DNA from: a virus
Lineage: Duplodnaviria; Heunggongvirae; Uroviricota; Caudoviricetes
IMG/VR virus record: IMGVR_UViG_2877958089_000002
DNA: 31,395 nucleotides
Reading direction: 5' to 3' (one strand)
Shown here: in pieces, positions 5,318 through 30,936 of the stretch
Position numbering within the stretch: position 1 is the stretch's first letter
Layout of the letters: each line of letters opens with the position of its first letter
Notes under the pieces: model-generated
Told to the model about the DNA's origin: nothing
Seen by the model: the letters and a program-made list of their open reading frames with translations, nothing else
Database searches by the model: none
Made by a program: the position numbers and the translations under genes

Positions 5318-6127
5318 ATGAATAATCTGATGGTCATTGATGGTATTGAAGTTCGTCGTGATGCTTATGGGCGTTACAGTCTGAACGATCTGCATCGCGC
5401 AGCAGTAGCATCTGGTGCAAATGCCAGAACCAAGGAGCCAGGAAAGTTTCTTTCCAGCCAACAAACTGTTGAGCTTGTTCATGAATTGACCAACACCCAG
5501 AATTTGGGTGTTGACCCGGTGAGTGTGATTCATGGGGGAAATGAACGGGGAACGTATGTCTGCAAGGAACTGGTGTATGCCTATGCAATGTGGATCAGCC
5601 CGTCATTCCATCTGAAGGTGATCCGTACTTTCGACATGGTAACCAGCGCACCGGAAAAATTATCCGGACAGGCTGCTGACAAGATGCAGGCTGGTGTGAT
5701 TCTGCTGGACTTTATGCGCCGGGAATTAAACCTGTCTAACTCTTCAGTGCTTGGTGCCTGTCAGAAACTCCAGGAGGCTGTTGGCTTACCGAATCTGGCA
5801 CCGCGCTATGCCATTGATGCTCCTGCTGATGCACACGATGGCTCAAGTCGCCCGACACTGTCACTGAGTGCACTGCTGAAACAGTATGGTATCCGCCTGA
5901 CGGCTAATCAGGCATATCACCAGATGGTGAAACTGGGGATCGTCGAGCAGCGCGAACGATACAGCCGTACCGCGATTAACAACATCAAAAAATTCTGGTC
6001 GCTGACAGCGAAAGGCTGCATGTTCGGCAAGAACATCACCAGTCCCGCAAATCCGCGCGAGACGCAGCCGCATTTCTTCGAATCCCGATTCCCTGAGCTG
6101 TTAAAGCTGCTCGATACCGTTCATTGA
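5318..6127 (+). CDS. KilA-N domain protein
   Basis: N-terminal KilA-N-like sequence (YSLNDLHRAA...KELVYAYAMWISPSFHLKVIRTF). C-terminal half unassigned. Confidence 0.65.
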   Translation: MNNLMVIDGIEVRRDAYGRYSLNDLHRAAVASGANARTKEPGKFLSSQQTVELVHELTNTQNLGVDPVSVIHGGNERGTYVCKELVYAYAMWISPSFHLKVIRTFDMVTSAPEKLSGQAADKMQAGVILLDFMRRELNLSNSSVLGACQKLQEAVGLPNLAPRYAIDAPADAHDGSSRPTLSLSALLKQYGIRLTANQAYHQMVKLGIVEQRERYSRTAINNIKKFWSLTAKGCMFGKNITSPANPRETQPHFFESRFPELLKLLDTVH

Positions 6128-6128
6128 G

Positions 6129-7124
6129 GTGACCGTGAGAGCACTACTGACCCCTGAAATAGCCCCGCGTATGGGGATCGTATTGTTCAGACCAGGTTCA
6201 GAGCTGATGCCCCTGTTTATGCAGGGGCGTGTACTGCTGGAGCCTGAGCCGGAACGTTATTCATCTTTCGCCAGTGGTGCCGTTCCCGCGGCATCACAAC
6301 CGCTGGCGGATGATCCTGCTGTTCGGGCCGTGTTCCGCAATGAGGCAGTGATCCGTCGTGCTGGTGGCGTGGAATGTCTTGAAAGCTGGTTACTTCGTGA
6401 AAAAGGCTGCCAGTGGCCTCATTCCGACTGGCACAGCGAGAACATGACCACAATGCGACACGCTCCGGGCGCAATCCGTCTGTGCTGGCACTGTGATAAC
6501 CAGCTGCGCGATCAGTTCACGGAACGGCTGGAATCAATGGCAACGGATAACTGTGCCCGCTGGGTGTTGTCTGTTGTGCGTCGGGATCTCGGTTTTGATG
6601 ATAGTCACGTTGTGACAATGCCGGAACTGTGCTGGTGGCTGGTTCGTAATGACCTGGCGGATGCCTTACCGGAAAGTGCAGCCCGTAAGGCACTGAGATT
6701 ACCGAAGCCTGTTGTGTCGTCTGTCACCCGGGAAAGTGACCTTGTGCCTTCGGTTCCTGCCACCAGCATCATCCAGGATAAAGCGAAAAATGTGCTGGCG
6801 CTGAAAGTGGATCCTGAGTCGCCGGAGTCTTTTATGTTACGCCCAAAACGTCGCCGCTGGGTCAATGAAAAGTACACGCGCTGGGTTAAGACACTGCCGT
6901 GTGCATGTTGTGGAAAGCCTGCTGATGATCCCCACCACCTGATAGGCCACGGTCAGGGGGGAATGGGTACAAAAGCGCATGACCTCTTTGTGTTGCCTTT
7001 GTGCAGAAAGCATCACGACGAGCTGCATGCGGATACCGTGGCATTTGAAGATAAGTATGGCTCCCAGCTGGAGCTGATATTTCGTTTTATCGATCGTGCG
7101 CTGGCAACTGGCGTGCTGGCCTGA
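6129..7124 (+). CDS. Prophage protein, DUF968-like, with C-terminal Cys/His (HNH-like) motif
   Basis: GTG start. C-terminal CACCGKP...PHHLIGHG...CRKHHDELH metal-binding motif. Family name recalled from E. coli prophage annotations, not verified. Confidence 0.4.
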   Translation: MTVRALLTPEIAPRMGIVLFRPGSELMPLFMQGRVLLEPEPERYSSFASGAVPAASQPLADDPAVRAVFRNEAVIRRAGGVECLESWLLREKGCQWPHSDWHSENMTTMRHAPGAIRLCWHCDNQLRDQFTERLESMATDNCARWVLSVVRRDLGFDDSHVVTMPELCWWLVRNDLADALPESAARKALRLPKPVVSSVTRESDLVPSVPATSIIQDKAKNVLALKVDPESPESFMLRPKRRRWVNEKYTRWVKTLPCACCGKPADDPHHLIGHGQGGMGTKAHDLFVLPLCRKHHDELHADTVAFEDKYGSQLELIFRFIDRALATGVLA

Positions 7125-7141
7125 TTTTGTGGAGAAAGTTG

Positions 7142-7507
7142 ATGCGTGATATTCAGATGGTTCTTGAGCGTTGGGGGGCATGGGCGGCGAGTGACAGTTC
7201 AGGAGTAGACTATTCGCCTATAGCTGCTGGGTTTAAGGGACTTCTTCCCTATACAAGCAAAACACGTCAGGCTTGTTCAGATAGTGATGCATTAATTATT
7301 GAAGGTTGTCTTGCTCGTCTAAAGCAAAAAAGGCCAGACGAACATTCGCTTCTTGTTGCCCATTACCTATACGGTATCTCTAAAAGAAAGCTCGCCAAAG
7401 CTCGTAAAAAGGATGAGAAACTAATACGCATTGAGATACAGATGGCTGAGGGGTTTATTGAAGGCTGTCTCTCAATGCTTGATCTTTGTTTGGAAATGGA
7501 CCAATAG
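7142..7507 (+). CDS. Late-gene antiterminator Q (small Q type, as in DLP12-type prophages)
   Basis: MRDIQMVLERWGAWAA... N-terminus and AEGFIEGCLSMLDLCLEMD C-terminus are typical of small Q antiterminators. Frame opens at TTG 7127; ATG 7142 has a GGAGA Shine-Dalgarno 6 nt upstream. Confidence 0.75.
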   Translation: MRDIQMVLERWGAWAASDSSGVDYSPIAAGFKGLLPYTSKTRQACSDSDALIIEGCLARLKQKRPDEHSLLVAHYLYGISKRKLAKARKKDEKLIRIEIQMAEGFIEGCLSMLDLCLEMDQ

Positions 7508-7518
7508 ACTACTAGAAT
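7490..7518 (+). promoter_or_regulatory. Candidate late promoter (pR'-like) overlapping the 3' end of Q
   Basis: TTGGAA (7490-7495), 17-bp spacer, TAGAAT (7513-7518), followed by a hairpin (AACTGCCG...CGGCAGTT, ~7522-7552). Placement mimics lambda pR'. Hexamers read by eye. Confidence 0.3.
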
Positions 7519-7530
7519 AGCAACTGCCGC

Positions 7531-7953
7531 TCAGCTTTGCGGATCGGCAGTTTCTGATGGTGTAATGTTACGCGCAGATGTTTCAAGTATAGATTCCCTT
7601 CCGATTGATACCAAAATTTCGATTGTTCTTGCTTTAGCCTGCATCAATGTTGATTTTATTTCAGGACTTAAGTGGTCAGATCGTAACTGCTTCTCAATCT
7701 CAGCCAAATCACGCTTGCATTTTGCTCTTTTGGCTGCGTCTTCTGGAGATTCGAAACCATGCCTCGAAATGAACCAATTCATGACGTAAGTTAAAGTTGC
7801 CGCAACACCCGGTACTAATGCGTAGGCTACAGTTCGCCACACGCTATTAGGGTCGGTTAAAATCGCGCTAACAAGAACACTTAAAATTGCTCCCCAACCA
7901 CCAGTTGAAAGGGTAGCTTTTCCTGTGCTTAGACCTTTAGTTTGAGAATTCAT
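7531..7953 (-). CDS. Small membrane protein (two predicted TM helices plus charged helical C-terminal tail); third gene of the antisense cassette
   Basis: 140-aa product. Hydrophobic segments GGWGAILSVLVSAIL and WRTVAYALVPGVAATLTYVMNWFI, then a K/R/E-rich helical tail. Start overlaps the upstream gene's stop. AT-rich. Confidence 0.6.
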   Translation of the reverse strand: MNSQTKGLSTGKATLSTGGWGAILSVLVSAILTDPNSVWRTVAYALVPGVAATLTYVMNWFISRHGFESPEDAAKRAKCKRDLAEIEKQLRSDHLSPEIKSTLMQAKARTIEILVSIGRESILETSARNITPSETADPQS

Positions 7954-8219
7954 TTTCGTTTTGAATTCTCCGCAATTGCCTCATCAATGAGGGTTGTTAG
8001 CATTTTTCCCTTTTTACTTGGAACTTTTATTACTAGCGTTTTGGTCACTCCGGAATCTTCATCGTGATATCGGAATTCGAAGACTTTTGTAGGGAATAGT
8101 CGACGCCAAAGCAAGGCTGACGCTGAATAGCAAAAACGACTAAAGGCAGGGATGATCATTATCACCCCTATCCAGAAGATCAGTTGTGCTATCTGCATGT
8201 TTAGTGTCACTTTTGTCAA
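7950..8219 (-). CDS. Small membrane protein (one N-terminal TM helix); second gene of the antisense cassette
   Basis: 89-aa product. TM segment IAQLIFWIGVIMIIPAF. Overlapping stop/start with both neighbours indicates an operon. Confidence 0.55.
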   Translation of the reverse strand: MTKVTLNMQIAQLIFWIGVIMIIPAFSRFCYSASALLWRRLFPTKVFEFRYHDEDSGVTKTLVIKVPSKKGKMLTTLIDEAIAENSKRK

Positions 8220-9085
8220 GCCTCAGCAGGGCGTTTTCGTTTTACTTTGGTTATAGCATACTTGGTTGTGGCATTTCGCGCAGTGAAAGTTTTTATAGTT
8301 TTTAGCTCAACAACAAACAAATCTTCTTTTGTAAAACTGATGATTCCGTTTTGAACTTGGTGTATAAACAACTGATCTTCAAAGGTAACAGCATGCTCTT
8401 CGCCTAAATAATCGATTCTCCAACCCTTTGTACCCTCGAAGTTGATCTGTACGAATCTAACATTGACTTCTTCTACAGACTCTTCTTTTTCAAGTAGTGT
8501 GCCTCTAGGCAGCGGTTTGATCTCTTCGGTTTCACTTCCTTCAAGACGAACGACTTCTTCGCCTTCATCATTCAGCACCTTAAATACTGCTCCTTGTTTG
8601 CCGTCTAATGGTGCACGAACTACATTCACAAGGGCATCACGGACTTCTGGATCTGTTACTAACTTAGCCACTGAGTCATGGCAAACAATTTCTTCCCCTT
8701 CAAGCTCAAGAACAGATTCTTCTGTTCCTGCCCGTTTTGTTACCGAAATTACTTTCTTGCTGCCCAGTTGGCGGATTAGTGATAATGCTGGAGCTCCAAT
8801 AGTAGCCCCGGCTATCCCTGTTAGGCCAATCACTTTTGCTACGTCGACGGCATGAGGAACAAGCTCCATCATCGTATAGGATACGCCGAGTGATCCCGCT
8901 TCAGCTGGATTAGTAACCATTAACTTAACGGTTTGTTGGCCGTCATTAAGTCTTTTATCAGCTGCTGATATTAAATCTGCCATCGAACCTATGGAAATGC
9001 TTAATGTTTTGGCATCAATTTTATGCTGTGCTAATTCATTATCCTCTGCATCGTAGAAGATCTGAAAAGAAGTTGTTTTAGTCAC
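8216..9085 (-). CDS. Hypothetical protein (289 aa), first gene of the antisense cassette; no recognisable family
   Basis: GTG start, with an in-frame stop 60 nt upstream and no ATG between. Gly-rich hydrophobic segment (GLTGIAGATIGAPALSL) and acidic C-terminal half. AT-rich relative to flanks. Confidence 0.55.
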   Translation of the reverse strand: MTKTTSFQIFYDAEDNELAQHKIDAKTLSISIGSMADLISAADKRLNDGQQTVKLMVTNPAEAGSLGVSYTMMELVPHAVDVAKVIGLTGIAGATIGAPALSLIRQLGSKKVISVTKRAGTEESVLELEGEEIVCHDSVAKLVTDPEVRDALVNVVRAPLDGKQGAVFKVLNDEGEEVVRLEGSETEEIKPLPRGTLLEKEESVEEVNVRFVQINFEGTKGWRIDYLGEEHAVTFEDQLFIHQVQNGIISFTKEDLFVVELKTIKTFTARNATTKYAITKVKRKRPAEA

Positions 9086-9206
9086 TCTTTGCTCGCTATG
9101 TCTTGATTTTTTTCCACAAAATACCTTTTTTTGGTGTAAAAAACATTATCGCGGTCCGCAAAAATTGCGTTACTGTGTTAAGAGTGATTACTTCGTCACA
9201 CAGCTT

Positions 9207-9233
9207 AAACCCGCCGTCGAGCGGGTTTTTTTA
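9207..9233 (+). terminator. Intrinsic terminator, plus strand
   Basis: AAACCCGC-cgtcga-GCGGGTTT stem-loop followed by a 7-T run. Lies between the antisense cassette and the small wHTH gene. Confidence 0.6.
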
Positions 9234-9355
9234 TACCTGTAAACCTGGTGCAGTACGGTAAACACGCTGGTGGTCGTGAATACTGACTTTTTATCTTGCT
9301 GGCTTTTTAGACAAGAGTTATTGGTATGTCATGTTAACCATGAAGGTAAAAAGAC

Positions 9356-9550
9356 ATGCTAAAACAGCAAGATATGACAGAAACGGCGAAAGTTGTTTTT
9401 AATGAATTAAACGGCAAACCGGCAACAGTCGGGGAGATAGCACAAAACACATACCTTTCACGCGAACGCTGTCAGTTAATACTGACCCAGCTGGTTATGG
9501 CGGGGCTGGCAGATTACCAGTTCGGCTGTTACAGACGCCTTCAGCAATGA
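9356..9550 (+). CDS. Small putative DNA-binding protein (64 aa) upstream of the methyltransferase
   Basis: ATG with AAGG about 9 nt upstream. Sequence ATVGEIAQNTYLSRERCQLILTQLVMAGLA suggests a helix-turn-helix. Confidence 0.4.
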   Translation: MLKQQDMTETAKVVFNELNGKPATVGEIAQNTYLSRERCQLILTQLVMAGLADYQFGCYRRLQQ

Positions 9551-9699
9551 AGGGCTTTTAATTTGTGAAAATGGGCGGCTGGTGGGTGTTGGTAGCACCT
9601 GCCAGCCATTCGCTCATGCTTACTGGTCACAAGCGAACCATGGCCCACTGCTTTAGCGCAAAAGCAGAGTGAGCCTACCAGAGTTACGCTTACTGATCC

Positions 9700-10752
9700 A
9701 TGAAAAATACTGTAAAAATAAACAGTGTTGATTTAATCAACGCTGATTGCCTGCATTTTATTCAGTCCCTGCCTGATGACTCCATTGATCTGATTGTTAC
9801 CGATCCGCCGTACTTCAAAGTGAAGCCCAACGGCTGGGACAATCAGTGGAAAGGGGACGAAGATTACCTGAAGTGGCTGGACCACTGTCTGGCCCAGTTC
9901 TGGCGGGTACTGAAACCAGCCGGAAGCCTTTACCTGTTCTGTGGACATCGCCTGGCATCTGATATCGAGATCATGATGCGTGAACGTTTCAACGTTCTTA
10001 ACCATATCATCTGGGCGAAGCCGTCCGGACGATGGAACGGGTGTAATAAAGAAAGCCTGCGGGCATATTTCCCCGCTACAGAGCGCGTTCTGTTTGCTGA
10101 ACATTACCAGGGGCCATATCGCGGCAAAAGTGACGATTATGCGGCAAAAGAAAGGGAACTCAAACAGCACATAATGGCACCGCTGATTTCGTATTTCAGG
10201 GATGCTCGTGCCGAACTGGGTATAACGGCAAAACAGATTGCCGAAGCCACTGGTAAGAAAAATATGGTTTCCCACTGGTTTGGTGCCAGTCAGTGGCAGT
10301 TGCCGAATGAGGCTGACTACCGGAAGTTGCAGGCACTGTTTTCCCGTATAGCGGCAGAGAAATTTCAGGAACAACAACTGGAACAACCACACCACCAGCT
10401 GGTGGCATCTTATGATTCACTGAATCGCAAATATTCTGAATTGCTGGATGAGTTTAAAACTCTCCGGCGCTATTTCTCCGTATCAGTTTCCGTGCCTTAT
10501 ACCGACGTCTGGACGTATAAACCCGTTCAGTTCTACCCGGGTAAACATCCGTGTGAGAAGCCTGCGGATATGCTCCGGCAAATAATCAGTGCCAGTAGTC
10601 GACAAGGCGATCTGGTTGCTGATTTCTTTATGGGATCCGGTTCCACAATAAAAGCGGCAATGGCGCTGGGGCGTCGGGCGTTAGGTGTTGAACTTGAGTC
10701 AGAGCGGTTTAATCAGACGGTGAAAGAGGTAAGTGAACTGGTGGGGAAATAA
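9700..10752 (+). CDS. Orphan DNA methyltransferase (N6-adenine/N4-cytosine MTase family, beta class)
   Basis: DPPY motif (LIVTDPPYF) near the N-terminus and AdoMet-binding motif (FFMGSGST) near the C-terminus. No adjacent restriction endonuclease. Confidence 0.85.
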   Translation: MKNTVKINSVDLINADCLHFIQSLPDDSIDLIVTDPPYFKVKPNGWDNQWKGDEDYLKWLDHCLAQFWRVLKPAGSLYLFCGHRLASDIEIMMRERFNVLNHIIWAKPSGRWNGCNKESLRAYFPATERVLFAEHYQGPYRGKSDDYAAKERELKQHIMAPLISYFRDARAELGITAKQIAEATGKKNMVSHWFGASQWQLPNEADYRKLQALFSRIAAEKFQEQQLEQPHHQLVASYDSLNRKYSELLDEFKTLRRYFSVSVSVPYTDVWTYKPVQFYPGKHPCEKPADMLRQIISASSRQGDLVADFFMGSGSTIKAAMALGRRALGVELESERFNQTVKEVSELVGK

Positions 10753-10759
10753 TTCTGGT

Positions 10760-10782
10760 GGCCACGTTGCGTGGCCTTTTTA
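10760..10782 (+). terminator. Intrinsic terminator between the methyltransferase and the holin
   Basis: GGCCAC-gttgc-GTGGCC hairpin followed by TTTTTATTT, 8 nt after the methyltransferase stop. Coordinates anchored on ORF-track codons. Confidence 0.55.
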
Positions 10783-10828
10783 TTTCCAACACAGCACCCG
10801 CAAATATCGCGAGGTGAGAGATGACGAA

Positions 10829-11164
10829 ATGCCTCATAACCCAAATACCTGGCTGGACTGGCTGGAGTTGTTTCAGAGCTGGTGGCGTGGAGATACGCCG
10901 CTGGGCGCAGTGATTATGTCGATTGTTATGGCTGGTTTGCGTATTGCCTATTTTGGTGGTGGTGGCGGCTGGAAACGAAAAACACTCGAAATTTTGCTCT
11001 GTGGCGCTCTGACGCTGACCTTTGCATCCGCTCTTGAGTATGTCGGATGGCCTAAATCGCTTTCTGTTGCCATTGGTGGTGGGGTGGGGCTGATCGGGGT
11101 CGATGCAATTCGTGGGGCTGCAATGCGAGTAATCGGTAATAAGTTTGGTAGTTCTAAGGAGTAA
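10829..11164 (+). CDS. Holin
   Basis: Directly precedes the R-type endolysin. About 111 aa with hydrophobic segments (LGAVIMSIVMAGLRIAYF, LLCGALTLTFASAL, VAIGGGVGLIGV). ATG at 10829 preceded by GAGGTGAGAG; track ORF starts earlier at GTG 10733 inside the methyltransferase 3' end. Confidence 0.6.
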   Translation: MPHNPNTWLDWLELFQSWWRGDTPLGAVIMSIVMAGLRIAYFGGGGGWKRKTLEILLCGALTLTFASALEYVGWPKSLSVAIGGGVGLIGVDAIRGAAMRVIGNKFGSSKE

Positions 11165-11167
11165 TTT

Positions 11168-11644
11168 ATGCAGGTACTAAATTCCCAGCGTAAAGCTTTC
11201 CTTGATATGGTGGCTTGGTCAGAAGGAACGGATAACGGACGACAACCGACACGTAACCACGGTTATGACGTTATTGTCGGTGGTGAACTCTTCACTGATT
11301 ACTCCGATCACCCTCGCAAACTTGTCACGCTAAACCCGAAACTCAAGTCAACAGCCGCCGGACGTTACCAGCTTCTTTCACGCTGGTGGGATGCTTACCG
11401 TAAACAGCTTGGCCTGAAAGATTTTTCTCCAGAAAGCCAGGACGCTGTAGCTCTGCAGCAGATTAAAGAGCGTGGCGCTTTACCGATGATTGACCGTGGC
11501 AATATTCGTCAGGCAATCGACCGTTGCAGCAATATCTGGGCGTCGTTACCTGGTGCAGGTTATGGTCAGTATGAACATAAAATCAGTGACCTGATTGCAC
11601 GGTTTGAAGAGGCTGGTGGGGTGGTAAATGAAGTTGAGCTATAA
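11168..11644 (+). CDS. R: Endolysin, lambda R-type lytic transglycosylase
   Basis: 158-aa product close to lambda R as I recall it (QRKAFLDMVAWSEGTDNGRQPTRNHGYDVIVGGELFTDYSDHPRKLVTLNPKLKST...). Confidence 0.9.
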   Translation: MQVLNSQRKAFLDMVAWSEGTDNGRQPTRNHGYDVIVGGELFTDYSDHPRKLVTLNPKLKSTAAGRYQLLSRWWDAYRKQLGLKDFSPESQDAVALQQIKERGALPMIDRGNIRQAIDRCSNIWASLPGAGYGQYEHKISDLIARFEEAGGVVNEVEL

Positions 11645-30665: not shown

Positions 30666-30936
30666 ATTTTACTTCATCTAATTCATAGTTAGCCGGGCGG
30701 GATGCGTCAATGTCTTTATTTCTATTAATATGATAAATATCAAACAATGTTTAATGTCATTATGGCGAATGCTTCTATTCTATTTTTTTGCCGGGTGATA
30801 TTTTTCATTTCTGCTGGATGAGCGTCGTCGCCAGAAGGCCACGTGAGCACAGGATAAGAGAACGAAAAATCAGCAGTCTATGCAGCGACAAATATTGATA
30901 GCCTGAATCAGTATTGATCTGCTGGCAAGAACAGAC

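Follow-up and report, generated by a model that had tools for sequence, protein, structure and literature searches.

Gene Order at the Late-Control Locus

We analyzed a 31,395-nt stretch of DNA from a tailed phage of the Caudoviricetes (IMG/VR record IMGVR_UViG_2877958089_000002; herein referred to as the window), which is an Escherichia coli prophage of the e14/SfV type, and concentrated on its late-control locus, where the gene for the antiterminator Q (ending at 7507) is separated from the lysis genes (the holin starts at 10829) by a gap of 3.3 kb. As the initial annotation of this DNA had correctly described, the gap holds an antisense cassette and two intrinsic terminators, the latter recovered by scanning, by folding and from the annotation of the related phage SfV (table 1); the cassette consists of three minus-strand open reading frames (ORFs). 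The segment at 9139–9232, which lies between the cassette and the genes that follow, is in our assessment very probably a complete phage 82-type late-control module, comprising the late promoter pR', a predicted Q-binding element (QBE), a pause element, and the promoter-proximal terminator tR', and it is set apart from Q by 1.64 kb of antisense cargo.

Table 1. Features in and around the late-control region (window coordinates).
Feature	Position	Strand	Basis or remark
KilA-N protein	5318–6127		Upstream of Q
DUF968/YdfU protein	6129–7124		Upstream of Q
Q, phage 82-family antiterminator	7139–7507	+	ATG at 7142; PGAP start is TTG at 7139
Hexamers TTGGAA-17-TAGAAT	7490–7518	+	Promoter-like; judged a chance match
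Hairpin at the Q/cassette junction	7522–7552	unstranded	Extends across the 140-aa ORF stop codon
Three-gene antisense cargo cassette	7531–9085	−	Neighboring ORFs overlap by 4 nt
140-aa membrane protein	7531–7953	−	ORF list
89-aa protein, predicted membrane helix	7950–8219	−	Overlaps both neighbors by 4 nt
289-aa protein	8216–9085	−	PADLOC PDC-S42
A/T-rich leader specific to the cassette	9086–9138	unstranded	Sequence inspection
A tract 5' of the −35, UP-element-like	9139–9144	+	Putative function
Weak −35 TCGCGG overlapping dyad GCGGTCCGC	9149–9159 (dyad 9151–9159)	+	Predicted Q-binding element
pR' −10 TACTGT	9171–9176	+	Alignment with VT1-Sakai and DLP12
Late transcription start, predicted	9181–9183	+	Alignment
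Putative sigma70-dependent pause element TGATTACTTCGTC	9185–9197	+	Homology; predicted pause at 9205–9206
tR', promoter-proximal intrinsic terminator	9207–9232	+	Hairpin and 7 T
64-aa ORF, SfV orf47-like, first of late operon	9356–9550	+	phrog_331 (5.8e-35)
N6/N4 DNA methyltransferase	9700–10752	+	PF01555 (5.5e-42), PADLOC MTase_II (1.9e-151)
Second intrinsic terminator, methylase/holin interval	10760–10781	+	Scan and folding
Lambda-family holin S	10829–11164	+	PF05106 (5.3e-27), phrog_126/phrog_90, PGAP
Endolysin R	11168–11644	+	phrog_126/phrog_90, PGAP

The Q protein matches PF06530 over its full length (E 3.8e-53) as well as phrog_79, shares 53% identity with QuuD of DLP12 and 49% with the Q of VT1-Sakai, and is annotated in E. 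coli W12-1 as an antiterminator Q family protein. A Pfam profile search gave no match of the window Q to PF03589, the lambda-type Q family; the window does not have the lambda-family Q with the lambda pause element, and the lambda-type arrangement is seen in SfV instead.

A Predicted Phage 82-Type Module Precedes the First Terminator

All the 82-family phages that we examined show conservation of the DNA immediately 5' of the first terminator, whatever separates it from Q; the conserved DNA takes the form of a common block (TAnnnT-GTTAAGAGTGGTTACTTCGCCACACAGCTTAA-hairpin-T run) that is shared by cdtI, PhiR40_1, mEp460_4F5, phiP27, DLP12/434/PA-2, and VT1-Sakai, the block of 434B being 100% identical to that of DLP12. 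In the VT1-Sakai record this block carries annotations for the late promoter (−35 TTTACG, 16 bp, −10 TATCAT), the Q-utilization site (qut) and the pR' terminator, and the −10 of the window aligns with the annotated VT1-Sakai hexamer and with TATGCT of DLP12, TAnnnT being invariant in the alignment. The pause block is (almost) invariant across 82-family loci; in the window it joins a TG of the extended −10 type to a −10-like hexamer and to a GTC that stands as the equivalent of GCC. Both the pause block and the dyad are unique in the window: the block TAAGAGTGRTTACTTCG occurs once, where 0.06 occurrences are expected by chance, and the dyad GCGGTCCGC is found exactly once in 31 kb.

The pR' of phage 82 itself has GCC at +15–17, a pause at U +25/+26 and an extended −10-like pause element (PMC5001585), and its QBE lies between the −35 and the −10, binding by 82 Q as a dimer being thought likely (PMC4914094). 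These published properties fit the block base for base if +1 is taken as the second A of TTAAGAG. Transcripts mapped in related phages lead to the same place: differential RNA sequencing (dRNA-seq) and Term-seq of the Stx phages of strain Sakai found a PR' start close to Q and a 258-nt transcript that runs to a second terminator (PMC7547250), and counting 258 nt back from that terminator in the Sakai sequence leads to the AAGAG within the block as the start. From the 82 pR' numbering together with the Sakai transcript length, we infer a start at ~9181–9183 in the window.

By every feature that could be tested in the sequence, the module belongs to the 82-type late-control family, and its position and identity, its pairing with the Q clade (see below), and both terminators can be taken as established at that level. 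The initial annotation had offered, as its second choice, a pR' within 9090–9200 with the terminator at 9207–9233 as the tR' equivalent, and this proposal is strongly supported both by homology to the studied 82/H-19B-type promoters and by the co-variation of Q clade and QBE; the alignment with the DLP12 late region that it recommended does recover the same block 5' of the first terminator.

The Promoter-like Hexamers at the End of Q

The first choice of the initial annotation was a different one, namely that pR' is the TTGGAA-17-TAGAAT at 7490–7518 and that a Q-modified late transcript from it would run antisense through the cassette, silencing it, and through both terminators. The hexamers are indeed present with a 17-bp spacing, and certain 82-family phages, VT1-Sakai among them, do have a pR' that overlaps the end of Q. 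As a promoter, however, the site does not stand. The match is 9 of 12 positions; the 5.5 kb scanned contain eight matches of this level, and shuffled sequences give 7.0 ± 2.4. TTGGAA is simply coding sequence for the conserved LEMD end of Q. When the DNA just 3' of Q was aligned, among six 82-family phages and then among ten closer relatives, homology among the relatives broke off at the Q stop codon, and the TAGAAT hexamer is variable, being CAGAAT in a relative that is 98% identical (L013). Neither a Q-binding dyad nor a pause element lies near 7490–7518, each of these occurring once in the window, at 9151–9232, and there is no terminator near the site. We therefore rejected it as a chance-level, unconserved match within Q coding sequence and regard a late promoter at the end of Q as exceedingly improbable.

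The hairpin that follows at 7522–7552 has a folding energy of −17.6 to −19.7 kcal/mol (z ~−2.3), has no T run on either strand and was not called by the terminator scans, and is therefore a weak terminator at best. The folding and promoter checks that had been suggested for 7480–7560 return chance hexamers and a weak hairpin, and those for the second interval return a canonical terminator at 9207–9232.

Spacer Dyads Are Paired With Q Clades Across 82-Family Loci

We surveyed 160 loci with an 82-family Q from viral and genome collections, and the profile of the block matched 148 of 172 sequences (171 loci and the window). Measured from the Q stop codon, the position of the block follows a bimodal distribution: ~50 loci have it at −21 to +50 bp, the abutting layout that is the classical one of Stx phages, and ~100 loci have it at 0.6–2.9 kb, with 1,642 bp in the window and 2,855 bp in DLP12/434B. 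The displaced layout with antisense cargo, already known from DLP12, 434B and PA-2, hence turns out to be common.

The dyads in the late-promoter spacer fall into six classes among 118 non-redundant loci (GCGGTCCGC, TTTACGwwCGTAAA, GCGTACGC, TGkrAATTmCA, TTCGTwACGAA, and TGCGTTACGCA). With Q clades defined by single linkage at 70% identity, each clade has one dyad class, with zero exceptions in these loci and regardless of whether the block abuts Q or is displaced from it by 0.6–2.9 kb; the class found in the window, for instance, comprises 11 loci in which it abuts Q and 46 in which it is displaced. The dyad segment correlates with Q distance at a Mantel r of 0.79, whereas the corresponding values are 0.39 (pause segment) and 0.29 (terminator segment). 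Such a pattern would be expected if the dyad is the cognate Q-binding element and is kept matched to Q across the intervening cargo.

Proposed Mechanism

We propose that Q would be made from the early rightward operon and would act in trans, 1.64 kb downstream, on the dyad GCGGTCCGC, which a constitutive sigma70 promoter carries in its spacer. Polymerase starting at ~9181–9183 would be held by sigma70 at the −10-like element, pausing near +25 (9205/9206); without Q it would terminate at 9207–9232 and yield a ~50-nt RNA, and with Q loaded onto the paused polymerase it would pass tR', the 64-aa ORF, the methyltransferase and the second terminator, and then enter S, R, Rz, and the structural genes. 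The initial annotation was right that a late transcript must pass both terminators; since the late start lies 3' of the cassette, however, such a transcript would never cross the cassette, and neither the antisense late transcription nor the silencing that had been derived from it is supported.

With a late start beyond the cassette, only early transcription reading past Q could produce convergent transcription over it. In an extension compatible with the 9139–9232 module, the early Q transcript would run past 7507, antisense into the cassette, and damp its expression after induction. No T-run terminator follows Q in the window, where the 7522–7552 hairpin is weak; a plus-strand terminator is missing at this point from 24 of 55 related displaced loci as well, and the cargo is nearly always antisense. 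The remaining 31 of the 55, on the other hand, do have a plus-strand terminator-like hairpin immediately 3' of Q, so that read-in is not a general design, and many relatives have strong bidirectional terminators at the position of the window's hairpin. We consider such damping possible, though on balance doubtful.

Several points weigh against a functional 82-type module at 9139–9232. Every mechanistic step in this prophage is taken from homology, and it is from homology that we infer the exact start site, the pausing, the binding of Q to the dyad, and Q-dependent read-through. The −35 is poor (2/6 match), so that promoter strength would rest on the UP-element-like A tract, which may compensate for it; most of the 118 late promoters in the alignment have an A-rich stretch at the matching position. 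The pause element departs from the family consensus at two bases (TGATTACTTCGTC vs. TGGTTACTTCGCC), namely G to A at 9187 (~+7) and C to T at 9196 (+16), the +16 T being shared by DLP12/434B, and in phage 82 a change to A inside the GCC triplet (+15–17) approximately halves the pause half-life (PMC5001585). The Sakai Stx PR' transcript was mapped to the terminator at +258 and not to the homologous first hairpin (PMC7547250); as this 258-nt RNA passes the first hairpin, termination at 9207–9232 may be partial. Finally, the co-variation of Q and QBE could partly reflect physical linkage instead of function, but two things argue against linkage alone: the segments next to the dyad correlate less strongly, and the cargo between Q and the QBE varies.

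The weak −35 and the two pause-element substitutions would also be consistent with 9139–9232 being an inactive relic, with the late genes driven from elsewhere (such as 9233–10829) or the prophage defective, as is DLP12, a prophage of the same layout. We judge this to be very unlikely. All elements of the module are intact, and it is nearly identical in ~30 E. coli genomes; the surrounding 4.1 kb has 99.9% identity with E. coli W12-1 and is covered over at least 80% of its length by ~30 complete E. coli genomes; the same layout is found in the isolated phages cdtI, PhiR40_1, mEp460_4F5, and 434B; a promoter scan of 9233–10829, including the interval between tR' and the methylase, found no consensus-like plus-strand promoter; and the lysis, packaging, head, and tail gene sets of the prophage are all complete.

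Terminators and Genes of the Late Operon

The terminator scan ranked these two terminators highest on the plus strand, and that at 10760–10781 is its best result. tR' consists of a hairpin at 9207–9228 (stem AAACCCGC/GCGGGTTT with a 6-nt loop) and a run of seven T (−16.8 kcal/mol, z −2.8), and RNA terminated at it is predicted to be ~50 nt long; its homologue is annotated as a terminator in the SfV, Ayreon, and VT1-Sakai records. The second terminator (10760–10776 and a T run; −19.4 kcal/mol, z −3.95) has a 7-bp stem with six GC pairs and an annotated homologue in the SfV and Ayreon records. Across the 118 loci, 99 have a perfect-stem promoter-proximal terminator whose hairpin ends at +45 to +114 (median +57), and these terminators comprise more than 35 different hairpin sequences. 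In Sakai Sp5 (locus L172, 744–1003, compared with 9181–9261 of the window), a good-looking hairpin with seven T is present at ~+27 to +52. This first Sakai hairpin, the homologue of the window's tR', may let polymerase through, or the short RNA that it yields may have gone undetected.

The 64-aa ORF at the head of the late operon also has a weak match to PF01978 (TrmB-like winged helix) and adjoins the methylase in SfV, cdtI, phiP27, and Ayreon; in phiP27, the same pair of ORF and methylase precedes stx2e. Given that no consensus-like promoter is present between tR' and the methylase, the latter is probably a late, Q-dependent gene, and the presence of a methyltransferase and a winged-helix-like ORF inside the late operon suggests Q-dependent methylation of progeny DNA. 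The second terminator would then be either an additional barrier before the holin or the 3' end of an inserted orf47-methylase module. Rz/Rz1-like lysis genes, an HNH endonuclease, and terminase genes follow 3' of the endolysin.

In the late-control region, no Rfam family matched at its gathering score, and matches to the Trp leader and fstAT (E 0.24–0.65) were weak and were dismissed as chance. Near the right end of the window, past the tail-fiber genes, the small RNA (sRNA) C0299 has a full-length Rfam match at 30838–30916 on the plus strand (112.5 bits; gathering score 40).

The Antisense Cassette and the Cargo Hotspot Between Q and pR'

The three ORFs of the cassette are translationally coupled. 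The 289-aa protein matches the PDC-S42 profile PDLC05015 (E 8.2e-33, residues 4–287 of 289), the PDC families of PADLOC being candidate defense systems only; its homologues are without exception (86 of 86) unnamed hypothetical proteins of Enterobacterales, searches gave no Pfam or PDB relative, and a confident AlphaFold2 model returned no informative fold match. The 89-aa ORF, which has an N-terminal hydrophobic helix, is conserved in two other loci (L036 and L070) and is not annotated by PGAP in the near-identical W12-1; it is probably a real gene that was missed. Our most likely guess is that the cassette serves a defense or exclusion function expressed in the lysogen. Its promoter is presumably held in the leader at 9086–9138, divergent from pR', and conservation with other cargo types stops ~45–50 nt 5' of the pR' start. 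Two minus-strand candidates for this promoter within 9086–9175, GATAAT at 9150–9145 (with a weak −35) and TATTTT at 9123–9118, are possible but neither conserved nor convincing.

The gap between Q and pR' (7508–9148 in the window; loci L003–L166) is a hotspot of cargo insertion that holds at least 25 unrelated cargo types. Matches to PADLOC and Pfam include PDC-S42 (the window), the KAP NTPase PDC-S20, TIR-TM, and PDC-M53A, as well as an NYN domain, NA37 (a nucleoid-associated protein family), and an SDH-type protease; the cargo of DLP12 is the nmpC porin, and a ~300-aa protein followed by a small multi-pass membrane protein is a recurring pattern. We scored cargo orientation in 64 selected loci with a displaced pR', and with few exceptions the intervening ORFs run on the minus strand. 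The sense exceptions are phiP27, whose cargo is a GIY-YIG protein, and two loci where plus-strand ORFs look Bro/KilA-like by eye; one more apparent plus-strand cargo ORF looks spurious. By our own count of cargo types, ~25 are antisense and 3 are sense (binomial estimate p ~1e-5).

In the PA-2 record J02580 (locus L174), which dates from the 1980s, a CRP-binding site for the antisense lc porin gene is annotated at 1569–1589. This site falls inside the segment (1501–1629) with a match to the late-promoter region of DLP12, so that the regulatory DNA of cargo may overlap pR'.

A more far-reaching proposal is that the Q/pR' junction is a dedicated, orientation-constrained landing site for defense cargo expressed in the lysogen, that Q binding or early read-in shuts the cargo off, and that the PDC-S42 cassette is an unrecognized defense system wired to the late switch. 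We offer this as speculation that is more probably wrong than right by a wide measure. If it were true, the antisense orientation would insulate the cargo from early and late phage transcription, and the cargo promoter region would abut or overlap pR'/QBE, so that shut-off would accompany lytic commitment. The literature that we searched contains no description of a defense hotspot between Q and pR', nor did we find in it the frequency of the displaced layout, the antisense bias and diversity of the cargo, or the one-to-one relation of Q clades and dyad classes.

Comparison With Known Late-Control Systems

The closest precedents are DLP12/434B/PA-2 and phage 82, which have a Q of the same family (PF06530) and the same promoter, pause, and terminator block as the window. 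In DLP12/434B/PA-2, an antisense nmpC or lc porin gene lies between Q and a pR' that is 2.86 kb away, the DLP12 order being Q, antisense nmpC, the same block, and essD, and Q-type antiterminator control of the DLP12 lysis operon is reported, in a statement cited in PMC7918800. The window differs from this group in several respects: the dyad of the DLP12 group is TTTACGTACGTAAA rather than that of the window, the window −35 is much weaker, the two Q proteins are only 53% identical, the cargo is a three-gene cassette instead of a porin, and the 64-aa ORF, the methylase, and the second terminator are placed between tR' and the holin.

The Stx phages H-19B, 933W, and VT1-Sakai have a Q of the same family (49% identity), a homologous promoter, pause element, and first hairpin, and, like the window, cargo genes in the late operon behind terminators; in these phages, unlike the window, pR' overlaps the end of Q and no cargo lies between. 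Their PR' transcript, which ends at the second terminator (+258), is processed to the StxS sRNA (PMC7547250). The window aligns only to nt 1–81 of the Sakai transcript, and the ~74-nt 3' part of the 258-nt transcript was not found in it.

SfV and Ayreon offer a different comparison. They share 95.5% identity with the window from 9208 on (orf47, the methylase, the second terminator, and S, R, and Rz), and homology begins exactly at that position, with a different sequence standing before the same terminator. SfV, a prophage of the same type, has a lambda-type Q (PF03589), a lambda-like pR' that abuts the terminator ~107 bp after Q, and no cassette; the Q of SfV and Ayreon is 250 aa long, membership of PF03589 being confirmed in SfV. 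The SfV sequence before the terminator (locus L002, 3394–3536) contains AACGATGGG, which in SfV and Ayreon sits at what we take to be the spacing of the lambda pause element. On these alignments, the terminator hairpin is a recombination junction between the Q/pR' modules and the orf47-methylase-lysis module, and the swap between SfV/Ayreon and the window indicates that the slot 5' of this terminator holds a pR'/qut matching the resident Q.

Lambda itself follows the same logic, with a constitutive promoter, a sigma70-dependent proximal pause, loading of DNA-bound Q, and read-through of downstream terminators, but its Q family is unrelated and its QBE and pause sequence are different. The lambda late module is found within ~300 bp after Q, whereas that of the window lies 1.64 kb from Q, with its terminator ~27 nt after the start.

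Implications for Lambdoid Prophages

The frequency of the displaced layout, the antisense bias and diversity of the cargo, and the pairing of Q clades with dyads are by-products of modest interest and come as no surprise. For the annotation of lambdoid prophages with an 82-family Q, the consequence is practical: the late promoter cannot be presumed to lie right after Q, being 0.6–2.9 kb away from it in roughly two-thirds of the loci sampled, and the short conserved block together with the Q-clade-specific dyad is a reliable locator of it. The survey also yields six natural pairs of Q and QBE specificity, along with a natural swap of lambda-type and 82-type modules at a single terminator. As the cargo of the hotspot is mostly uncharacterized and several of its members match candidate anti-phage systems, the interval between Q and pR' is a useful place to seek defense genes.

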